Shown here piece by piece: positions 1 to 40,323 of a stretch of DNA of 40,323 bases. The notes under the pieces were generated by a model. That model was given only the letters and a program-made list of their open reading frames with translations, ran no database searches and was not told where the DNA came from. How positions within the stretch are numbered: position 1 is the first letter of the stretch; every line of letters starts with the position of its first letter. The stretch is from the IMG/VR virus record IMGVR_UViG_650377933_000001, positions 1 to 40,323 of that record; one strand, 5' to 3'. A program made the translations under genes and the position numbers. The stretch is from a virus (Duplodnaviria > Heunggongvirae > Uroviricota > Caudoviricetes).

Positions 1-1074
1 TCATTTGTCGATTTCAATTTTGTCCCATTCACGCCCACGACTGTCCCTATACCGCGCCGCCATTGAATCTGATTTATGCCCGAGAAGACGTTGAGCAAAC
101 TTATCGCCAATCTGATTCCGGTATAGCCTCGCCGACAGGCTACGCAGTTCATGGAATGTTGGCGGGTCTCCATCAAATGAGAGTCCAGATACATTTCTCG
201 CCTTTGTAAAATACTTAGATACTGTTTTCGGGGAAAGCGGTTCGTGATGCGTTGATGCAATTATTGTTTCACTGCCGCTGGCCTCCCTGCATTTCTGTAG
301 TGTATCAGCCAATGAGATATTGAGCGCGTCAATCGTTAGCATCAGCGGAATGGCGAGCTTAGTACCTGTTTTACCCTGCTCAATGTGAAGATGGTTGTCG
401 TTTATGTCTGACCATTTCATTCTACATAAATCGCCTACTCTCTGCCCTGTAACGACAGCCAAATCCATTGCCAGCCTCAGCCAGATTGGGAGCGGTTCGG
501 CTGCATGGTAAATCGCGACATATTCATTAGCTGTCAGCCTTGAGCGCCTTACTTCTGACTTTGCTGTGCGGGTTGCTGTTACCGGATTCGTTTCCACATG
601 CCCCTCGGCTATTGCCTCACGAAAAACGTCAACAAGGGTTGACCTGATTAATTTTGCGGAAGCTGCTTTACCTTCTGCTACGTAGGTGTTTAGCATTGCT
701 GCCACTTCTTTCGTTGATATGTCAGTGAGCGGTTTGTCCGGCAATTTTCTTCGGATTACCCTGATTTTGCTGGCGTAGTCGAGTAGAGTTTTCGGTCTGA
801 TACCCCTCTCGCTGAGGATTGTTTCATATCGGTCAAGCCACGCATGAAGAGTGATTGCGTCAGCGCCTTTAATTCTGTCTATCAGTGACTCACGCCTGTT
901 CTCGGATAGCAACTCAATATTGGCCTGAATAGCCTCTGAAACTGCTATCCTTCTGTCTCTGCCTAATCCAAACTCTTTACCCGTCCTTGGGTCCCTGTAG
1001 CAGTAATATCCATTGTTTCTTATATAAAGGTTAGGGGGTAAATCCCGGCGCTCATGACTTCTCCTTCTTCCCAT
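1..1074 (-). CDS. int: Tyrosine integrase, lambda Int family
   Basis: 357-aa translation starting MGRRRSHERRDLPPNLYIRNNGYYCYRDPRTGKEFGLGRDRR, near-identical to my recollection of lambda Int, with C-terminal HELRSL...LLGH...Y catalytic motifs. Confidence 0.95.
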   Translation of the reverse strand: MGRRRSHERRDLPPNLYIRNNGYYCYRDPRTGKEFGLGRDRRIAVSEAIQANIELLSENRRESLIDRIKGADAITLHAWLDRYETILSERGIRPKTLLDYASKIRVIRRKLPDKPLTDISTKEVAAMLNTYVAEGKAASAKLIRSTLVDVFREAIAEGHVETNPVTATRTAKSEVRRSRLTANEYVAIYHAAEPLPIWLRLAMDLAVVTGQRVGDLCRMKWSDINDNHLHIEQGKTGTKLAIPLMLTIDALNISLADTLQKCREASGSETIIASTHHEPLSPKTVSKYFTKARNVSGLSFDGDPPTFHELRSLSARLYRNQIGDKFAQRLLGHKSDSMAARYRDSRGREWDKIEIDK

Positions 1075-9417: not shown

Positions 9418-9445
9418 AAAAAAAAGGGGCGAATGCCCCCTTATG
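9418..9445 (-). terminator. Rho-independent terminator after the repressor gene
   Basis: Minus strand GGGGGCATTCGCCCC followed by TTTTTTTT immediately after the c2 stop. Confidence 0.5.
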
Positions 9446-10091
9446 GAAGGTTTGCTAGTTTTGCATCGACAACTACGCCGATGATTTTGCAGTTTCCGTT
9501 GATCTCGATCATCGGATATTGTGGGTTAAGTGGTTTTAGAAACTTCCTGCCTGCATCAATAACTAACTTCTTGAAAGTTGCCTCGTTTTCTCCTTCGAGC
9601 TTTGCAACTACCAGTTTCCCGTTACGCGGCTCTACTTCAGGATCGACGAGTATTATCATTCCTTCAGGGATACTGAGACCGGCCGGAGCCGTCATTGAGT
9701 CTCCCTTCACGTCCAACCAAAACGAATCTTCTGAACAGTCTACGGTTGTATCGTACCAGTTATCTATTGCACGCTTATGATATGGTTCTACAGCTTCCAT
9801 CCAGCATCCTGCGCTCACCCAGCTAATCAGAGGGTATGACCCTCTTGGATCATGCCTACTGTGATAGGCAATGTTTGAAAGACTTTCCTCTCCTTTCATC
9901 AGATAGTCAGGGGAACACTTCAACGCATTAGCCAGGGCGAGAAGATTCTCTCCATTTGGCTCTGTCTCAGAGCGTTCCCACTGAGATATGGCAACATTAG
10001 ACACGCCGACCATCTTTCCAAGTGCGGCCTGCCTGATCTTGAGTTCTTTTCTCCGAGCGCGAATGCGCTCTCCCATCAATTGAGTTTTCAT
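9441..10091 (-). CDS. c2: Prophage repressor, P22 C2 type (HTH plus S24 LexA-like autopeptidase domain)
   Basis: 216-aa translation MKTQLMGERIRARRKELKIRQAALGKMVGVSNVAISQWERSETEPNGENLL... near-identical to recalled P22 C2; start codon abuts OR3, implying a leaderless pRM transcript. Confidence 0.95.
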   Translation of the reverse strand: MKTQLMGERIRARRKELKIRQAALGKMVGVSNVAISQWERSETEPNGENLLALANALKCSPDYLMKGEESLSNIAYHSRHDPRGSYPLISWVSAGCWMEAVEPYHKRAIDNWYDTTVDCSEDSFWLDVKGDSMTAPAGLSIPEGMIILVDPEVEPRNGKLVVAKLEGENEATFKKLVIDAGRKFLKPLNPQYPMIEINGNCKIIGVVVDAKLANLP

Positions 10092-13402: not shown

Positions 13403-13431
13403 AGGCCTGCTGGTAATCGCAGGCCTTTTTA
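13403..13431 (+). terminator. Rho-independent terminator after the helicase gene
   Basis: AGGCCTGC-TGGTAATC-GCAGGCCT (perfect 8-bp stem) followed by TTTTT. Confidence 0.5.
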
Positions 13432-13449: not shown

Positions 13450-13656
13450 GTGGTTGAGTTGATTTTCTCTGCATTGAGGCTTCTCGGTGCTCTGTGGATG
13501 GTGGCGACGTTCATTGTGGTTGCTGGCTGTTTTGTCCGGTTGGTAGGCGAAGGTAAAGACCTGGTGGGTGTGCTTTTCGGTAGCATTTTCCTGTGGGTGA
13601 TTATCGGTGTTATGCCTGTCGCTGTAGCAAAAATGGCGTGGCGTTTTGTGAGTTGA
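13450..13656 (+). CDS. Hypothetical small membrane protein (68 aa, GTG start)
   Basis: GGGGGAGAG RBS 8 nt upstream of GTG; two hydrophobic segments. Confidence 0.4.
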   Translation: MVELIFSALRLLGALWMVATFIVVAGCFVRLVGEGKDLVGVLFGSIFLWVIIGVMPVAVAKMAWRFVS

Positions 13657-13673: not shown

Positions 13674-13982
13674 ATGGACGAATCAAGAAAGAAGTTTGAG
13701 GAATACGTTGCCAAAAAATTGAAATTACCATTCGAGATGATAACCGAGGCAAGAAATGGTGATAGGTACTTCGCATTTTCAAGCATGGATATTCGTCACT
13801 CCTTAAATGAGTGGTGGACTTTATGGCAGGCATCGCGAGCAGCTATCGAGATTGAGCTGCAAAAGCCAAAGAAAGGCCCACTTCCCGGTGATTATCACAT
13901 TGGCTATGACTCAGGTGCAGAATCGCAATACGAAAGCGATGTAGAGGCTATCCGCGCCGCTGGAATCAAAGTGAAGGAGTGA
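13674..13982 (+). CDS. Hypothetical protein (102 aa)
   Basis: ORF with GAGGG upstream; no family recognised. Confidence 0.45.
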   Translation: MDESRKKFEEYVAKKLKLPFEMITEARNGDRYFAFSSMDIRHSLNEWWTLWQASRAAIEIELQKPKKGPLPGDYHIGYDSGAESQYESDVEAIRAAGIKVKE

Positions 13983-13984
13983 GC

Positions 13985-14170
13985 ATGAGTCGACGAAGTA
14001 GCTTTTTGGGGTTTGTAATATTCCTGTCCTGCACTGGTTACATCGTAATCTGGTCAATTTCGAACATTGACCGTGGCGGGGAATATCTCATTGTAATGTT
14101 CTTTCCTTTGTTTCTTGGGTGGTACGCCGCAAGGTTGCTGGAAGAATGGGGTTACAGGCATAAAAAATAA
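13985..14170 (+). CDS. Hypothetical small membrane protein (61 aa)
   Basis: AAGGAG RBS 6 nt upstream of ATG at 13985; two hydrophobic segments. Confidence 0.4.
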   Translation: MSRRSSFLGFVIFLSCTGYIVIWSISNIDRGGEYLIVMFFPLFLGWYAARLLEEWGYRHKK

Positions 14171-14181
14171 AGGAGTGTTCA

Positions 14182-14592
14182 GTGAAGCAAACAATATTCC
14201 TCCGAACTAAGCAACAACAGCAAGCCGCAATCAACGCCATCCTCGCAACACCACTCGATAAAGACAAGCCAGTCACCATCCGCATTATTGACTACAAGCG
14301 CAACCTTGACCAGAACGCAAAATTTCACGCGATGCTGGCGGATATCGCACGTCAGGTTCAATGGTGCGGCAAATGGTTAAAACCGGAACAATGGAAGGTT
14401 TTGTTGATCAGCGGTCATGCAGTGGCTACAAAGCAGGAAGCTGATGTTTTGCCCGGCCTTGAAGGCGAATACGTCAACATTCGCGAAAGCAGCGCGCAGA
14501 TGAGCGTGAAGCGCATGGCAAGTCTGATCGAGTACACAACAGCCTGGGCTATTGGTCAGGGTGTCAGATTTACCGACAGGAGGTACGAATGA
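14182..14592 (+). CDS. ninB: NinB recombination protein
   Basis: 136 aa with ...[30 protein letters not shown]... resembling lambda NinB; AAGGAG RBS with GTG start. Confidence 0.8.
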
Positions 14593-14765
14593 GACGACAG
14601 CGACGAAGTTTCACCGACATCATCTGCGAAAACTGCAAATACCTTCCAACGAAACGCTCCAGAAATAAACGCAAGCCAATCCCAAAAGAATCTGACGTAA
14701 AAACCTTCAACTACACGGCTCACCTGTGGGATATCCGGTGGCTAAGACATCGTGCGAGGAAATGA
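14589..14765 (+). CDS. ninE: NinE-like small protein (58 aa)
   Basis: Manual translation [52 protein letters not shown]...; ATG overlaps the ninB stop (ATGA). The ninE versus ninD name is from memory and could be swapped. Confidence 0.5.
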
Positions 14766-14767
14766 CA

Positions 14768-15127
14768 ATGGATTATTCACAGTTAAGTGATTTTGAAATT
14801 AACAAGCGAGTGGCAATTTGCTGTGGATTTGCTCCCGAAGATTGCGAAATCGCAAAGTTGGGAACATCAATCGTTGGTGTTGAGTGGGATGACGAAACTG
14901 GTTATGCAATAAAAACGGTTGATTACTGTAAAAGCCCGTCAGACGCAGAGCCGATTATCGTAGAGAACAGAATTGGCATTATTCCAGCGCCAGAAAATGG
15001 ATTATGGAAGGCAGCGCATAGAAAAGTTGGCAGTGATAGTACCCCATATCATATGACTCAAGATGAAAACCCACTCCGCGCTGCCATGATTGTCTTTCTC
15101 ATGATGCAGGACGCCAATAATGCTTAG
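14768..15127 (+). CDS. Hypothetical nin-region protein (NinX-like, ~119 aa)
   Basis: Start chosen at MDYSQLSDFEINKRV with AGGA 7 nt upstream; an alternative ATG lies at 14762. Confidence 0.45.
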   Translation: MDYSQLSDFEINKRVAICCGFAPEDCEIAKLGTSIVGVEWDDETGYAIKTVDYCKSPSDAEPIIVENRIGIIPAPENGLWKAAHRKVGSDSTPYHMTQDENPLRAAMIVFLMMQDANNA

Positions 15128-15296
15128 CCCATCCCAATCCCTTCAATACCAGAAAGAAAGCGTCGAGCGGGCTTTAACGTGCGCTAATTGCGGTCAGAAG
15201 CTGCATGTGCTGGAAGTTCACGTGTGTGAGCACTGCTGCGCAGAACTGATGAGCGATCCGAATAGCTCAATGTACGAGGAAGAAGACGATGAATGA
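15120..15296 (+). CDS. ninF: NinF-like small zinc-ribbon protein (58 aa)
   Basis: Manual translation MLSPSQSLQYQKESVERALTCANCGQKLHVLEVHVCEHCCAELM... with CxxC...CxxCC motif; matches recalled lambda NinF. Confidence 0.5.
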   Translation: MLSPSQSLQYQKESVERALTCANCGQKLHVLEVHVCEHCCAELMSDPNSSMYEEEDDE

Positions 15297-16014
15297 GTTA
15301 ATAAATGGCAATGCCATCAAAATGACAAGCATTGAAATCGCTGAGTTGGTAGAAAGCCGCCATAGCAATGTAAAAGTATCCATAGATAGATTGGTGAAAC
15401 GTGGCGTTATCAAGCCTCCTGCATTGCAGCACACTAACATAATCAATGATTTAGGTGTTATTACCGGGAAGCGTGATTTCTACGTCTTCGAGGGCGAACA
15501 AGGTAAGCGCGACAGCATTATTGTCGTCGCTCAGTTGTCGCCGGAATTCACCGCTCGTCTTGTTGACCGTTGGCGAGAGCTTGAAGACGCTGCGGTTAAT
15601 ATCCCCAAAACGCTACCAGAAGCGTTGCGCCTTGCTGCTGATCTTGCTGAGCAGAAAATGCAACTGGAAAACCAGCTCGCAATTGCCGCACCTAAAGTTG
15701 AGTTTGCCGATCGCGTTGGCGAGGCCAGCGGAATTTTGATTGGAAACTTTGCAAAGGTTGTTGGAATTGGTCCAAACAAACTGTTTGCGTGGATGCGCGA
15801 TCACAAAATCCTTATTGCTTCAGGTTCCCGTCGCAATGTGCCAATGCAGGAATATATGGATCGCGGCTATTTCACAGTGAAAGAAACAGCGGTCAACACA
15901 AATCACGGAATACAGATATCGTTCACCACAAAAATCACCGGGCGTGGTCAACAGTGGCTGACCAGAAAGCTGCTCGATAACGGAATGCTGAAAGTAACAG
16001 GGGAGGCTGCTTAA
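15289..16014 (+). CDS. Rha/antirepressor-like regulatory protein (241 aa)
   Basis: N-terminal region resembles Rha-type phage regulators and the C-terminal half resembles antirepressor (ANT/KilAC-like) domains, as I recall these families; start overlaps the ninF stop. Confidence 0.6.
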   Translation: MNELINGNAIKMTSIEIAELVESRHSNVKVSIDRLVKRGVIKPPALQHTNIINDLGVITGKRDFYVFEGEQGKRDSIIVVAQLSPEFTARLVDRWRELEDAAVNIPKTLPEALRLAADLAEQKMQLENQLAIAAPKVEFADRVGEASGILIGNFAKVVGIGPNKLFAWMRDHKILIASGSRRNVPMQEYMDRGYFTVKETAVNTNHGIQISFTTKITGRGQQWLTRKLLDNGMLKVTGEAA

Positions 16015-16304
16015 TGGCTAACCTACGCAAAGAAGCACGCGGCAGAGAATGCCAGGTACGTATTTACGGCGTATGCAATGGTAATCCTGAAACTACAGTT
16101 CTGGCACATTGCCGGATGGCTGGAATTTGCGGAACGGGAATGAAGCCTGACGACCTGATCGGCGCATGGGCTTGTAGCGCGTGTCACGATGAAATCGACC
16201 GACGCACCCATAATCTCGACAACAAAGACGCCAGACTTTACCACCTCGAAGGCGTGATCAGGACGCAGGCGATACTGCTGAAGGAGGGGAAGATTAAGCC
16301 ATGA
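16014..16304 (+). CDS. DUF1364-family nin-region protein (YbcO-like, 96 aa)
   Basis: MANLRKEARGRECQVRIYGVCNGNPETTVLAH...CSACHDEIDRR with Cys/His cluster, resembling E. coli YbcO as I recall it. Confidence 0.6.
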   Translation: MANLRKEARGRECQVRIYGVCNGNPETTVLAHCRMAGICGTGMKPDDLIGAWACSACHDEIDRRTHNLDNKDARLYHLEGVIRTQAILLKEGKIKP

Positions 16305-16663
16305 ACGAATATCAGTTTGTGCTTCCATACCCGCCGTCGGTGAACACCTACTGGCGAAGACGGGGAAGCCAATACTACATCAGCGATAAAGGCCAGAAAT
16401 ACCGAAAAGACGTTCAGCAAATCATCCGCCAACTTAAGTTAGATATTTTCACCAAATCACGACTCCGCATCAAAGTCATCGCAGACGTTCCAGACTCCCG
16501 CCGCCGCGACCTCGACAACATCCTGAAAGGTTTACTCGACTCCCTTATCCACGCCGGATTTGCGGAAGACGACGAGCAATTCGATGACATTCGCGTAATT
16601 CGTGGTGTGAAAGTACCAGGCGGAAGGCTTGGAATAAAAATCACCGAACTGGAGAACGTATGA
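16301..16663 (+). CDS. rusA: RusA Holliday-junction resolvase
   Basis: 120 aa MNEYQFVLPYPPSVNTYWRRRGSQYYISDKGQKYRKDV... with acidic catalytic region ...RRRDLDNILKGLLDSL... Confidence 0.85.
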   Translation: MNEYQFVLPYPPSVNTYWRRRGSQYYISDKGQKYRKDVQQIIRQLKLDIFTKSRLRIKVIADVPDSRRRDLDNILKGLLDSLIHAGFAEDDEQFDDIRVIRGVKVPGGRLGIKITELENV

Positions 16664-16848
16664 ACGCCACAATTCAAACGATACCAGAGCTTCTTATCCA
16701 GACACGAGGCAATCAGACCGAAGTGGCGAGGATGCTTTCCTGCGCAAGAGGAACAGTGCTCAAGTACAACCGAGACAGCAAAGGCGAGCGTCACGTAATA
16801 GTTAACGGCGTCCTGATGGTCACGCCAGGCAAAAAGGGAAGACGATGA
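16660..16848 (+). CDS. ninH: NinH-like protein
   Basis: 62 aa ...IPELLIQTRGNQTEVARMLSCARGTVLKYNRD... resembling lambda NinH; start overlaps the rusA stop. Confidence 0.65.
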   Translation: MNATIQTIPELLIQTRGNQTEVARMLSCARGTVLKYNRDSKGERHVIVNGVLMVTPGKKGRR

Positions 16849-17468
16849 GACTCGAAAGCGTAGCTAAATTTCATTCGCCAAAAAGCCCGATGATGAGCGA
16901 CTCACCACGGGCTACGGCTTCTGACTCTCTTTCCGGTACTGATGTGATGGCTGCTATGGGGATGGCGCAATCACAAGCCGGATTCGGTATGGCTGCATTC
17001 TGCGGCAAGCATGAACTCAGCCAGAACGACAAACAAAAGGCTATCAACTATCTGATGCAATTTGCACACAAGGTATCGGGGAAATACCGTGGCGTTGCAA
17101 AGCTTGAAGGAAATACTAAGGCAAAGGTACTGCAAGTGCTCGCAACATTCGCTTATGCGGATTATTGCCGTAGTGCCGCGACGCCGGGCGCAAGATGCAG
17201 AGATTGCCACGGTACAGGCCGTGCGGTTGATATAGCCAAAACAGAGCAGTGGGGGAGAGTTGTTGAGAAAGAGTGCGGAAGATGCAAAGGTGTCGGCTAT
17301 TCAAGAATGCCAGCAAGCGCCGCATATCGCGCTGTAACGATGCTAATCCCAAACCTTACTCAACCCACCTGGTCACGCACTGTTAAGCCGCTGTATGACG
17401 CTCTGGTGGTGCAATGCCACAAAGAAGAGTCAATCGCAGACAACATTTTGAATGCGGTCACACGTTAA
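16845..17468 (+). CDS. Q: Late-gene antiterminator Q (lambda type)
   Basis: 207 aa, matching recalled lambda Q throughout, including the zinc-binding CRDCHGTG...CGRCKG; directly upstream of pR'. Confidence 0.85.
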   Translation: MRLESVAKFHSPKSPMMSDSPRATASDSLSGTDVMAAMGMAQSQAGFGMAAFCGKHELSQNDKQKAINYLMQFAHKVSGKYRGVAKLEGNTKAKVLQVLATFAYADYCRSAATPGARCRDCHGTGRAVDIAKTEQWGRVVEKECGRCKGVGYSRMPASAAYRAVTMLIPNLTQPTWSRTVKPLYDALVVQCHKEESIADNILNAVTR

Positions 17469-35760: not shown

Positions 35761-36684
35761 ATGACGAGTGTAGCAATTGCAGAACATACAATCAACGTTC
35801 CATTCCACGGAACAAATCTCTTTTTGGTCAGCATTAACAATGAACCTTACGTTCCTATGAAACCCGTTGTAGAAGGCATGGGTATGGTTTGGGCTGCTCA
35901 ATTTGTTAAATTAAAACAGAGATTTGTCAAAGGTATTTCGGAAATCGAAATACCTTCTGCTGGCGGTAAACAGTTAATGATATGCCTTGCCTTTCGTAAG
36001 TTTGCGGCTTGGCTTTCAAGCATTCAGCCTAACAAAGTCCGCCCTGAAATCCGCGACAAGGTAATCCGGTATCAGGAAGAGTGTGACGATGTGCTCTACG
36101 AGTACTGGACTAAAGGTCATGTAGTTAACCCACGCAAAGCTAAAAAGGCGTTGCCGGGTAAAATCACCACTGAACAGCAGGAAGCCATTAAACAACTCGT
36201 CATGAGTCGCGGTCAGTCTCTGCCAAAGGAAAAACAGGCTAAGGCGATGATCACCATGTGGTCGTCACTGAAATCCCATTTTGGATGTTCATACAAAGAA
36301 ATCAGTGAGGAGCAGTTTACCGAAGCACTGTCACTTGCAGCTCGAGTTCCGCTTGAAGGTGAGTTCATTGGCAAACAAGAGAAGAAAACCAACGAGCTTT
36401 CTGCAAAAGAAGCAAACAGCCTTGTATGGTTATGGGATTATGCCAACCGCTCACAGGCATTATTCCGCGAACTGTATCCGGCATTAAAACAAATTCAATC
36501 GAACTATTCCGGCAGATGCTACGACTACGGTCATGAATTCTCGTATGTTATCGGAATGGCGAGAGACGTTTTAATCAATCACACACGAGATGTTGATATC
36601 AATGAGCCAGACGGACCAACGAATCTTTCCGCATGGATGAGACTTAAGAATAAAGAATTACCTCCTTCAGTACATAACTACTGA
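35761..36684 (+). CDS. ant: Antirepressor Ant (307 aa)
   Basis: Large ORF downstream of arc in the P22 immI arrangement; followed by an intrinsic terminator. Call rests mainly on synteny and size. Confidence 0.7.
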
Positions 36685-36794: not shown

Positions 36795-37304
36795 TTACCT
36801 ACCATGATTCTCATGATAACCATAGGTCTTTTCAGCCTCACGCCTTACAGCAATTGCATCATCGAGACTCTTAAAGTATCCGAGATTAATGCGCTTCCCT
36901 GCGTCGCTAATATATGCCACCCACTTTTTATGGGTCTTATGCCATGAAACCCCAGCGCACCCAGATGTATTGTTTGTGTATTTAGATTTGTTTTTTAGGT
37001 TTTCACCGAGACTAACTAGACGCAGGTTGTCTATTGAATTATTTAACCCGTTACCATCTTTATGGTCAATTTGCATTCCGGAAGGGATTTCACCATAAAA
37101 CATTTCCCATATTATCCTATGGGCGGCGTATATTTTATCTTGATACCTAATAATTATATAAGAGGTTTTCCTGTTCTTGTCCTTGAATATATGTCCTGCA
37201 GGCTTTTCTTTAGAGATATTAAACATTTTGGGTCTTGAAAGATATTGGTCACTCCAGTACAGGAGTCCATCGTCTTTTAATACGAATACTTCGTTCCAGT
37301 TCAT
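36795..37304 (-). CDS. HNH homing endonuclease with C-terminal AP2-like DNA-binding domain (169 aa)
   Basis: Start at MNWNEVFVLK with AAAGGTGG RBS; HNH motif ...QIDHKDGNGLNNSIDNLRLV...; C-terminal ...SGCAGVSWHKTHKKWVAYI...GYF...AIAVRREAEKTYGY resembles AP2 domains. The longer track ORF runs antisense into the tailspike start. Confidence 0.75.
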   Translation of the reverse strand: MNWNEVFVLKDDGLLYWSDQYLSRPKMFNISKEKPAGHIFKDKNRKTSYIIIRYQDKIYAAHRIIWEMFYGEIPSGMQIDHKDGNGLNNSIDNLRLVSLGENLKNKSKYTNNTSGCAGVSWHKTHKKWVAYISDAGKRINLGYFKSLDDAIAVRREAEKTYGYHENHGR

Positions 37305-37392
37305 GTTAACCACCTTTAAATAAAGTGCACTCATTATACAAAAAAACATGCTAGCAATGAATATTGCTGGCTTAACATATAGAGAAATTAAA

Positions 37393-39795
37393 ATGACAGA
37401 TTCAATAAATGCCAATGTTGTAGTGAGTATGCCTTCGCAACTCTTCACTATGGCGCGTTCTTTTAAAGCGGTTGCCAATGGCAAAATTTATATCGGTAAA
37501 ATTGACACTGACCCGGTAAATCCAGAAAACCAGATTCAGGTTTATGTAGAGAATGAAGATGGCTCTCACGTTCCTGTTGCACAGCCAATCATCATTAACG
37601 CTGGCGGGTATCCGGTATATAACGGACAGATTGCCAAATTCGTAACTGTACAGGGCCATTCTATGGCTGTTTATGATGCGTATGGTGCGCAGCAGTTCTA
37701 TTTTCCTAATGTGCTGAAGTATGACCCTGATCAGTTACGGCAGCAATTAGAAGACCCGGATGGTTCTAAAAAATATCCAGAATTGCAGATTGCACGATGG
37801 CGTGATGACAAAGACGTTCGCGGTTGGGGGGCTATCAGTGATGGAATAACTGACGCTACTGAGGCATTCTCTAACGCAGGCTATAGAATGTTTGTTCCTG
37901 ATGGCGATTTTGCAGTAAATACTCTCGAAGTTGATGTATCTTCTGCTCGAGGTATTGGGAGGATTGTTGCAGATAATGGCTCTCTTATTTCAGTTTCTCG
38001 TCTGCTTGAAACTGACAAACTTGCGCAGAGAAAAATGATGGAACCTTTTTTTGGTTTTCAGGGAGAAACAAACACAGAAATTTACCCTAATGCCAGAAAT
38101 GCGTTACAGGGGATCGCATATTGCCGTGTTAATGGCATTGAAAAACTATTTGTCACACAACGGCCTGTTGGGCCGACCTGGTCAGATAAAGAAAGAGTTC
38201 GTATTGTTGAGTTTAATCTTTATGATGATGGAAGGGTAGTAAACCATGTTGCGTATTCTCCAGAATTAAACCTTGGGCACGGTTTTGATCTTTCTGCCAT
38301 GGTGGAGAATGGTCAAGTATATTTATATACATCAAGTGTAACCAATTCAGGTGAAGATGGGGAGTCTGCAGGCAAAGGGTTTAGTAAAATAACTTGGCGA
38401 GGGGCAGGAACAACTCAGTCTGACGTAAAAAGTTATAATGTATGGGGGATTACTGGTAGCGGTCACCCATTTCAAGATTACAATCGTGCAGGAATTGCCA
38501 TTTCTTCTGACGGTCGTCTTTTAATAATGGTTAATACACCAAAGAGTGATGCCGCTAAACGAACTGTATTTATATACGATAAAATATCAATTGATAAACT
38601 TGAAGATAAAACATTAGCAAACCCCATGTTTGTTTGGGAAATGAGCGACTCACCTTCTGAAGGCGCTTACTCTGTACAAGGTATTGCGTCTGATGGAAGA
38701 TATATACATATACTTAAGGGAGGGGCTAACGCTTTTGGAAAGCATCATATCTTTACATATGATTTAACAGGTAATTTACTAAGAAAATTAGATATCGATG
38801 ATGCAAGGTCGCAATATGGGCGCGATGGGTTGCTTAACCATCCAACTCTTGGGAATCCAGCCAGATTTGAGCCGGAAGGTCTAACTATTCGTGGTGAAGA
38901 AATAATTATAAGCTGCATAGAAACATGGAGGGCAGGAGCTAATATTGTAAACTGGCGTGGAAGAAGATGGGCTGCATCATCCATTGAGACTTCTGGAATA
39001 ATTGGTGTCCCTCCATCAAATGGCTCTTATTGGGTAGAAACAACCAAGGATGCAAATTCTGGAGATTGGAGTCCTGAAATAGATTATGGATGGGGAAGTA
39101 GCTATTCTCTTGAGAAAAAGACAATTTACTCTATACGACCAGCGACTGGTAACAACGATGATCAGAACCTTAATTCTGGCATAACCAATGCTTCAAGTAA
39201 TGCAGGTGTAGATGCCGGAGAAAGCGGGCGAAATATATCATTTAGATGGCGCAATGCTTTTAATATTGTTGCATTTAGCGAACGTCTTGGTGAATACTTC
39301 AACGCTATTATGTATGATAATAGCTCAAGACTAAGAATATACGATCAGCAAAACGGTAGTGATAACACTGTTTATGGCTCAATCCAGGCACTATTTACGT
39401 CATCATTTAAGGGATTGATTTTAAGGGGTAGGGGGGTATCAGCATCAAATAGTTCCTATATTAGGTTACATTCATCTGATGATCCAAACTACCCAAATTC
39501 GATCATTGAAGGAACAAGAACAGATGGAAGTTTTTCCAGGGAAACAGATTCAAACGGAACCACTACATTCGCATCGGACTCAGAGCACGAACCGTTGCGT
39601 ATCAGAAGGGCTTCAGATGGTTTGTTGTTTGCATACGAGAAAGTAAGAGGTACAACTCTCTTTGGAATTTATAGAGGCTCCGGTTCACCTGAGGGTGTTG
39701 TGACCGCACCTCAGGGGTCAATGTATATTGATTATAATGGTGATTGGTATCAAAAGAAAACAGGAACAGGAAACACAGGATGGGTGTTAAAATAG
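37393..39795 (+). CDS. Tailspike protein: P22 gp9-like N-terminal head-binding domain fused to a divergent receptor-binding domain (800 aa)
   Basis: From [60 protein letters not shown]... the first ~115 aa match recalled P22 gp9; the remainder does not resemble the P22 endorhamnosidase as I recall it. Confidence 0.8.
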
Positions 39796-39824
39796 ACTAT
39801 TCTATTTTAATTGTTATCACTAAA

Positions 39825-39850
39825 CCACCTCCATTGGAGGTGGTATTTTA
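39825..39850 (+). terminator. Rho-independent terminator after the tailspike gene
   Basis: CCACCTCC-ATTG-GAGGTGG followed by TATTTTATT. Confidence 0.55.
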
Positions 39851-40035
39851 TTGTTTATATTTAAGATAACTAAGTGATTAGTAATAGAATATTATATCTT
39901 TATATCTATAGATTTTTATCACACTTACTCAGTTCATTTGTCATGTCAATAAGTTTATTTAAAAAGTTGATTAAGTTGAGTAATGGTTAAAGTTTTTATA
40001 CGTTTCCATAGGCCATATTTGACAAAGGAGTAGTA

Positions 40036-40323
40036 ATGGATATAACAGCTTTTCTTCACGCACTTTGCGCTGTTGTCGCACAGGCTCTGGTTGGTCTTTT
40101 TACCGGAAACTGGGCTTACGGTGCGATAGCAGGTTGTACGTTCTTCATTGCGCGTGAACACACCCAGGCAGAATATCGCTGGATAGAAAAGTTTGGGAAA
40201 GGGAAACGTATCAACATGCCATGGTGTGGAGGTTTTGATCCACGCGTGTGGGATGTGGGAAGTCTGTTGGATTTTTCTTTCCCAATTATCGGATGCTTAT
40301 TGGTATGGATTCTTGCATCGTAG
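40036..40323 (+). CDS. Hypothetical small membrane protein (95 aa), moron-like gene at the prophage end
   Basis: AAGGAG RBS 5 nt upstream of ATG; two to three hydrophobic segments; preceded by ~185 bp of very AT-rich DNA; stop codon is the last triplet of the window. Confidence 0.4.
   Translation: MDITAFLHALCAVVAQALVGLFTGNWAYGAIAGCTFFIAREHTQAEYRWIEKFGKGKRINMPWCGGFDPRVWDVGSLLDFSFPIIGCLLVWILAS

Follow-up and report, generated by a model that had tools for sequence, protein, structure and literature searches.

The Roi protein of phage HK022 is reportedly a helix-turn-helix DNA-binding protein, with a binding site that lies within its own gene beside a site for IHF. IHF is said to stabilise the binding of Roi at this in-gene site, single amino acid changes in Roi are said to relieve the IHF requirement of the phage, and the C-terminal half of the protein reportedly resembles the Ant1 and KilA proteins of phage P1. 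The sole experimental study of Roi deals with DNA binding and IHF-linked growth inhibition, and antirepression lies outside its subject. According to the title of that study (Clerget & Boccard 1996) and to passages in two later papers (PMC3430580, PMC4587872), HK022 Roi inhibits lytic growth of the phage in E. coli IHF mutants. The gene is known yet little studied, with just two open-access papers found to cite Clerget & Boccard 1996. IS629 insertions have been described in the roi gene of O157 Stx2a phages, and interruption of roi by IS629 in Stx phages has been suggested to alter how much toxin is made (PMC4587872). Since such insertions are tolerated, roi is non-essential in these phages.

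The window analysed here, the whole stretch of 40,323 nucleotides, represents an E. coli podophage or prophage that resembles P22 and has an early region of lambdoid type, and contains genes for an integrase, an S24 repressor, SieB, O and P, terminase, portal and coat proteins and a head-binding tailspike. The gene order from int (1-1074, minus strand) through the tailspike gene (37348-39795) corresponds to a P22-like genome in its prophage permutation, and no host flank is included in the window. An earlier note, made from the letters of this DNA, had pointed to an ORF at 15289-16014 as a Rha/antirepressor-like gene in the nin region, present in addition to an immI-type ant gene. The coordinates given there were exact: the ORF lies on the plus strand, starts with ATG and codes for 241 amino acids followed by a stop codon. 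The separate ant gene was also found. It occupies positions 35761-36684 (plus strand), has the Pfam domains P22_AR_N (135.9 bits) and P22_AR_C (103.6 bits) and belongs to a sequence family unrelated to the gene at 15289-16014. Between this P22-type ant and the tailspike gene there is a 229-aa ORF on the minus strand (36795-37484) with an HNH_3 match of 72 bits and a weak AP2 match, which overlaps the start (37348) of the longest possible tailspike ORF and looks like an insertion of the homing-endonuclease type.

The ORF at 15289-16014 has 98.9 % DNA identity with the roi gene of HK022 over 726 nt. The predicted proteins agree at 240 of 241 positions with no gaps, the lone difference, a conservative one, being D100 in the window, where HK022 has E. 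Judged by these alignments, the ORF is roi, a common and already described gene of lambdoid phages, in its usual place. The gene is also annotated in HK97, HK620, mEpX1/2 and Stx phages of the H19B/933W type. Of 5,426 complete E. coli genomes, 987 (approximately 18 %) contain a close DNA relative, as do 219 phage records; with full length taken as at least 80 % coverage, 942 of these genomes and 200 of the phage records have a full-length version. Among the genome matches listed, roi adjoins ninF. A large protein collection contained 7,774 relatives of Roi at E ≤ 1e-5. The occurrence of roi in the window itself adds nothing new, and functional insight into a gene present in this share of E. 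coli genomes, Stx phages included, would reach widely. The tolerance of IS629 insertions in some Stx phages might be taken to mean that the ORF is a chance or decaying frame without function, and the conservation just described refutes this; together with the strong domain match and the tight packing of the operon, it leaves that reading with a probability close to nil. An identical roi was found in none of the complete E. coli genomes searched, the best match being 98.9 %, and the right end of the window (39700-40323), which consists of the 3′ end of the tailspike gene and a 95-aa ORF reaching the edge, is 100 % identical to the chromosome of E. coli LF82, so that the element is mosaic relative to sequenced strains.

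The surroundings of roi are those of a canonical nin region, between the replication gene P and the antiterminator gene Q. Genes with Pfam matches to NinB (14182-14592), NinE (14589-14765), NinX (14726-15127) and NinF (15120-15296, plus strand, 58 aa; PF05810, 47.3 bits) precede it, and genes for YbcO (16014-16304, plus strand; 145.8 bits), RusA (16301-16663), NinH (16660-16848) and Q (16845-17468) follow. The location in the nin region claimed earlier thus held, with neighbours named by Pfam on both sides. Start and stop codons overlap at nearly all junctions in this gene order, and the neighbourhood is syntenic with those of HK022, HK97 and HK620. The stop codon of roi and the ATG of the ybcO-like gene share one base (TAATG). 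At the 5′ end, the putative translation-initiation region of roi (15276-15296, plus strand) consists of a Shine-Dalgarno-like GAGGA (15276-15280), situated 9-10 nt before the roi ATG (15289-15291), and a start/stop overlap in which the TGA of ninF (15294-15296) lies inside ATGAATGA (15289-15296). The overlap with the ninF frame, noted earlier and here read directly from the sequence, amounts to 8 nt, and the identical 8-nt overlap of ninF and roi is annotated in HK022, HK97 and HK620. The statement that roi is co-translated with delayed-early genes was correct in that the genes are predicted to be co-transcribed and ninF and roi are probably translationally coupled, although the word itself should be replaced. 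The description of roi as frequently exchanged cargo was fair: the nin region of P22 lacks roi, its ninF abutting ninG by the same 8-nt overlap, and the neighbours of roi are different in the Stx phage PA30.

A tR2-like intrinsic terminator was predicted at 13403-13426 (plus strand), between the DnaB-like gene P and the nin genes, and tR2 is annotated at the equivalent position in HK620. With this terminator upstream of the nin genes, roi would belong to that part of the pR operon whose transcription depends on antitermination (delayed-early). From the terminator to Q, no promoter-like site was detected on the plus strand, and downstream of Q a pR′-like promoter and a tR′-like terminator were predicted, all of these promoter and terminator calls coming from consensus scans. 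A terminator-like hairpin (15714-15730) and short direct and inverted repeats within roi are at chance level. Between gene P and ninB there is also a 102-aa ORF (13674-13982, plus strand) that had no Pfam match, with a small hydrophobic-looking ORF on either side (13450-13656 and 13979-14170).

Two domains were recognised in Roi. The C-terminal half contains an ANT/KilAC domain (aa 127-229, positions 15667-15975, plus strand; PF03374), which scored 113.2 bits (cut-off 25.3) over profile positions 1-106 of 108, and 115.9 bits when the half was searched in isolation. The N-terminal domain (aa 12-99, positions 15322-15585, plus strand) is of the Rha type, a winged-helix domain. Here the Phage_pRha profile (PF09669) covered positions 1-90 of 91 and gave 24.7 bits with whole Roi and 27.1-27.9 bits with the isolated N-terminal half, both under the curated cut-off of 29.9, and weak matches to the winged-helix families HTH_24 and MarR were found at aa 11-42. 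The assignment was confirmed through full-length homologues that are above both cut-offs, namely the protein NVP1231O_60 of a Vibrio phage (pRha 56.1 bits, ANT 43.6 bits), which has 33 % identity with Roi across both domains (E 1e-32), and a 223-aa ORF of the Salmonella phage LPSE1, a Jerseyvirus (pRha 59.2 bits, ANT 41.2 bits). Most close database relatives of Roi carry a precomputed PF09669 match, and the BLASTP alignment with P22 Rha, though in register, is weak (E 0.012). The domain content predicted in the earlier note was therefore borne out by a strong KilAC match, a full-length pRha match below cut-off and the intermediate sequences.

No NCBIfam entry matched Roi, no PADLOC defence or anti-defence model was hit, and PDB sequence and profile searches returned nothing even at E ≤ 10. 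An AlphaFold2 model from 22 close relatives (83-98 % identity) had a mean pLDDT of 36 and a pTM of 0.27 and was unusable, the alignment being too shallow. The LPSE1 ORF mentioned above runs uninterrupted from 1201 to 1872 in KY379853.1, and the record annotates the 3′ fragment alone (1528-1872, 'putative DNA-binding protein') together with a hypothetical CDS on the opposite strand, so the region is likely mis-annotated. A few of the database relatives (P0004, P0005 and P0116) are fusions of greater length, seen as 304 aa with an additional PF25212 match at the N-terminus and as 331 aa with a YbcO domain beside pRha and ANT; they may be due to read-through or to errors of gene calling where the nin genes overlap so tightly.

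The KilAC domain takes its name from P1 Ant1 and KilA, and Roi matches PHROG 63, 'anti-repressor Ant' (E 3.3e-93); PHROG and RefSeq both label the family 'anti-repressor'. Roi might accordingly be a true antirepressor, whose KilAC half would bind and inactivate repressors of the CI or C2 type, either its own or those of heteroimmune prophages in the same cell, and so reinforce commitment to lysis or cross-induce neighbouring prophages. In Salmonella, antirepressors are known that act in trans and cross-induce prophages (PMC3121763). The label of roi, however, is one of domain similarity only, and the exact function of such domains is called unclear in the paper on the Listeria phage protein AriS (PMC9043618). 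No experimental report of antirepression by Roi was found in the literature. The position of the gene also speaks against this role. Situated in the repressor-controlled pR operon behind the tR2-like terminator, with no promoter-like site in between, roi would be made only after derepression, and could then not trigger the induction of its own prophage. The consensus scan gave no sign for roi of the repressor-independent expression control that is a trait of antirepressors, and the window already has a dedicated antirepressor in its P22-type Ant.

A comparison with immunity types bears on the same question. The repressor of the window (9441-10091, minus strand) is of the imm21/P22-C2 type and is 100 % identical to the repressors of JEP4, CUS-3, IME10 and N7. 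The roi allele of the window (at least 97.5 % DNA identity) occurs in HK022, HK97, HK542 and mEpX1/2, none of which is among the repressor matches of at least 80 %, and in JEP4 it is found together with an imm21/C2-type repressor. CUS-3, N7, Kapi1 and Gally, on the other hand, have the repressor of the window but an HK620-type roi allele (approximately 90.5 %). One roi allele thus occurs with unrelated repressors and one repressor with different roi alleles, and as far as these alignments can tell, the allele of roi in a sequenced phage is independent of its immunity type. Association with immunity does not strictly define antirepressors, since broad-range ones exist, and those of broad specificity like P22 Ant need not co-vary with it (PMC3064807).

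In its KilAC half, Roi hardly varies between close relatives or between three allele types from heteroimmune phages, and the same holds for the DNA of this half. A Jerseyvirus moreover encodes the complete pRha and KilAC architecture, and ICP1 has a pRha homologue that is annotated as 'Roi'. The genus Jerseyvirus and ICP1 are known as strictly lytic. Independent assortment, the near-invariant KilAC half, the Jerseyvirus homologue and the place in the pR operon all argue against a cognate antirepressor, and we consider antirepression by Roi to be quite unlikely. The functional label in the earlier note was not supported, as the gene is roi, has a KilAC half shared by heteroimmune phages and shows no promoter-like site of its own. 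The 'Ant' of phi24B, encoded in the nin region of an Stx phage, was considered as a precedent and rejected, being of the P22-Ant type without KilAC, and its knockout left superinfection immunity unaffected. Rem of prophage Qin is likewise unrelated to the Roi family. The value of the analysis is chiefly one of annotation correction, as databases propagate 'antirepressor' for a gene whose record is of DNA binding and IHF-linked growth inhibition.

Variation within roi is concentrated in the other half of the gene. DNA and protein alignments delimit a hypervariable allelic segment at 15350-15483 (plus strand; gene nt ~62-195, aa ~21-65), covering the recognition helix and the wing of the N-terminal domain. 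In the aligned roi genes of the window, HK022, HK97, HK620 and PA30, near-identical DNA stands on both sides of the segment, which is cassette-like; strong variation is confined to this stretch of the gene. Among 76 distinct roi-like genes from viral contigs, 27 wing variants were counted. These are of two classes, I-N-x-L-G wings, which go with an IHF consensus in the DNA, and other wings (such as EEKPTAGRP and ENKQTISPNKF), which do not.

In the window, a perfect IHF consensus, WATCAANNNNTTR (AATCAATGATTTA), is located at 15441-15453 (plus strand), on the codons for I52-N53-D54-L55; the 40-kb window has five matches in all, against 2.6 expected. All alleles with an I-N-x-L-G wing, which comprise five or more allele groups and some 60 distinct genes, keep the consensus at gene nt 153-165, and in the 76 genes examined this wing is always spelled with an A followed by ATC AAT nnn TT(A/G). 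None of the other-wing alleles in this set has the consensus anywhere in the gene. From codon usage in the window, the consensus would be predicted, given the peptide, with a frequency of about 0.047 per independent allele, the alleles not being fully independent of each other.

A similar arrangement is seen in rha of P22, the other gene reported to stop phage from growing in hosts deficient in IHF (PMC4936722). One of the four consensus matches in the P22 genome (39835-39847) falls on the homologous wing codons of rha. The P22 gene and the HK620 roi (positions ~1640-1670 of its locus) have in common a patch, GTTTCCGAAA(A/G)AATCAATAACTTAGGG, with identity at 29 of 30 nt in otherwise unrelated DNA. 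The patch comprises an A-tract and the IHF core and is found in several roi alleles, although the Rha and Roi proteins are only approximately 18 % identical. As a general feature of the Rha family the consensus was rejected: six other Rha genes of E. coli phages have neither the motif nor the consensus, and the consensus is also lacking in LPSE1, in gp112 of ICP1 and in the Vibrio homologue. IHF involvement cannot be general for roi either, since some of its alleles are without the consensus. Where it is present, the consensus fits the published connection with IHF and hints at a cis-element that lies within the coding sequence. Constraint at the protein level or recombination of short patches could contribute to its conservation, as the site in the window is one consensus match that doubles as the code for a peptide motif. 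The wing-allele classes, the patch in common with P22 rha and the independence of roi allele and immunity are mildly new side points.

Taken with the published record, we favour, with moderate confidence, a reading in which Roi, a delayed-early and translationally coupled product, is a regulator with site-specific DNA binding. It would act together with IHF at a site within roi itself, and its deregulation where IHF is missing would block lytic growth. After loss of repressor and with antitermination, Roi would be made along with the nin proteins. Its N-terminal domain would bind DNA within roi, next to a site bent by IHF, and the resulting complex would limit the amount or activity of Roi, either through autoregulation or through an effect on rightward transcription in the direction of Q. 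In the absence of IHF, Roi would become inhibitory to lytic development. For the KilAC half, a conserved component of the host or of the phage is a likelier partner than the immunity repressor, because this half is nearly invariant across phages with different repressors.

The near-invariance of the KilAC half across heteroimmune phages, and its occurrence in a Jerseyvirus, would also be expected of a host-directed domain. By analogy with AriS, Roi could be a dual regulator, with an N-terminal domain acting on phage genes and a KilAC domain acting on a host function, for example by damping RecA/SOS or by inhibiting growth or division. The isolated ANT/KilAC domain of AriS inhibits SOS, and pRha-KilAC is among the AriS-like architectures (PMC9043618); in phi11 Gp07, a KilA-type C-terminal domain leads to growth inhibition and filamentation in E. 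coli (PMC5944126). AriS and Gp07, however, are distant proteins from Firmicute phages, the published phenotype of Roi is linked to IHF rather than to SOS, and no defence or anti-defence model matched Roi, so that this role is possible but doubtful. It is compatible with the favoured IHF model and not exclusive of it. A combination of the two may be put forward tentatively, as something of low probability: Roi would then be no antirepressor but a DNA-anchored host modulator, whose winged-helix half, the variable one, docks on an IHF-bent site in its own wing codons, with the invariant KilAC half acting on a conserved host target, e.g. RecA/SOS as for AriS. If this were true, the specificity of the protein and its cis-site would travel as one recombination cassette, and the 30-nt patch of P22 rha and some roi alleles would be a cis-regulatory element that is mobile and makes any Rha-type gene with this patch dependent on IHF.

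Roi can be compared with several known systems. Roi and P22 Ant are both annotated 'antirepressor' and both types are encoded in the window, but P22 Ant is composed of P22_AR_N and P22_AR_C, whereas Roi is composed of pRha and KilAC, and P22 ant has its own promoter and is controlled by Mnt, Arc and sar, whereas no such control was detectable for roi in the consensus scan. The Rha proteins of P22 and phi80, the founders of PF09669, have an N-terminal domain of the same family as that of Roi, as judged by profile and intermediate sequences, and share with Roi the reported inhibition of growth in IHF-deficient hosts (PMC4936722). P22 Rha differs in having ~18-21 % identity with Roi and a pRha domain (79.8 bits) that is followed by an ORF11CD3 C-terminal domain instead of KilAC, and its gene is located in the late operon. 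The C-terminal KilAC domain is shared with Ant1 and KilA of P1, AriS of Listeria phage and Gp07 of phi11, and among these other KilAC proteins, P1 Ant is known as an antirepressor, AriS as an inhibitor of SOS and Gp07 as an inhibitor of growth. AriS-like proteins consist of two domains with a swappable N-terminal regulatory domain, for which AntA/B, Bro-N and pRha are listed (PMC9043618); the layout of Roi fits this description, although the N-terminal domain of AriS-like proteins is mostly AntA/B or Bro-N. The closest system remains HK022, a siphophage, whose Roi has the same length and the same place, with ninF on one side and the ybcO-like gene, rusA, ninH and Q on the other, whereas in the window the gene stands in a P22-like podophage background with an imm21/C2-type repressor.
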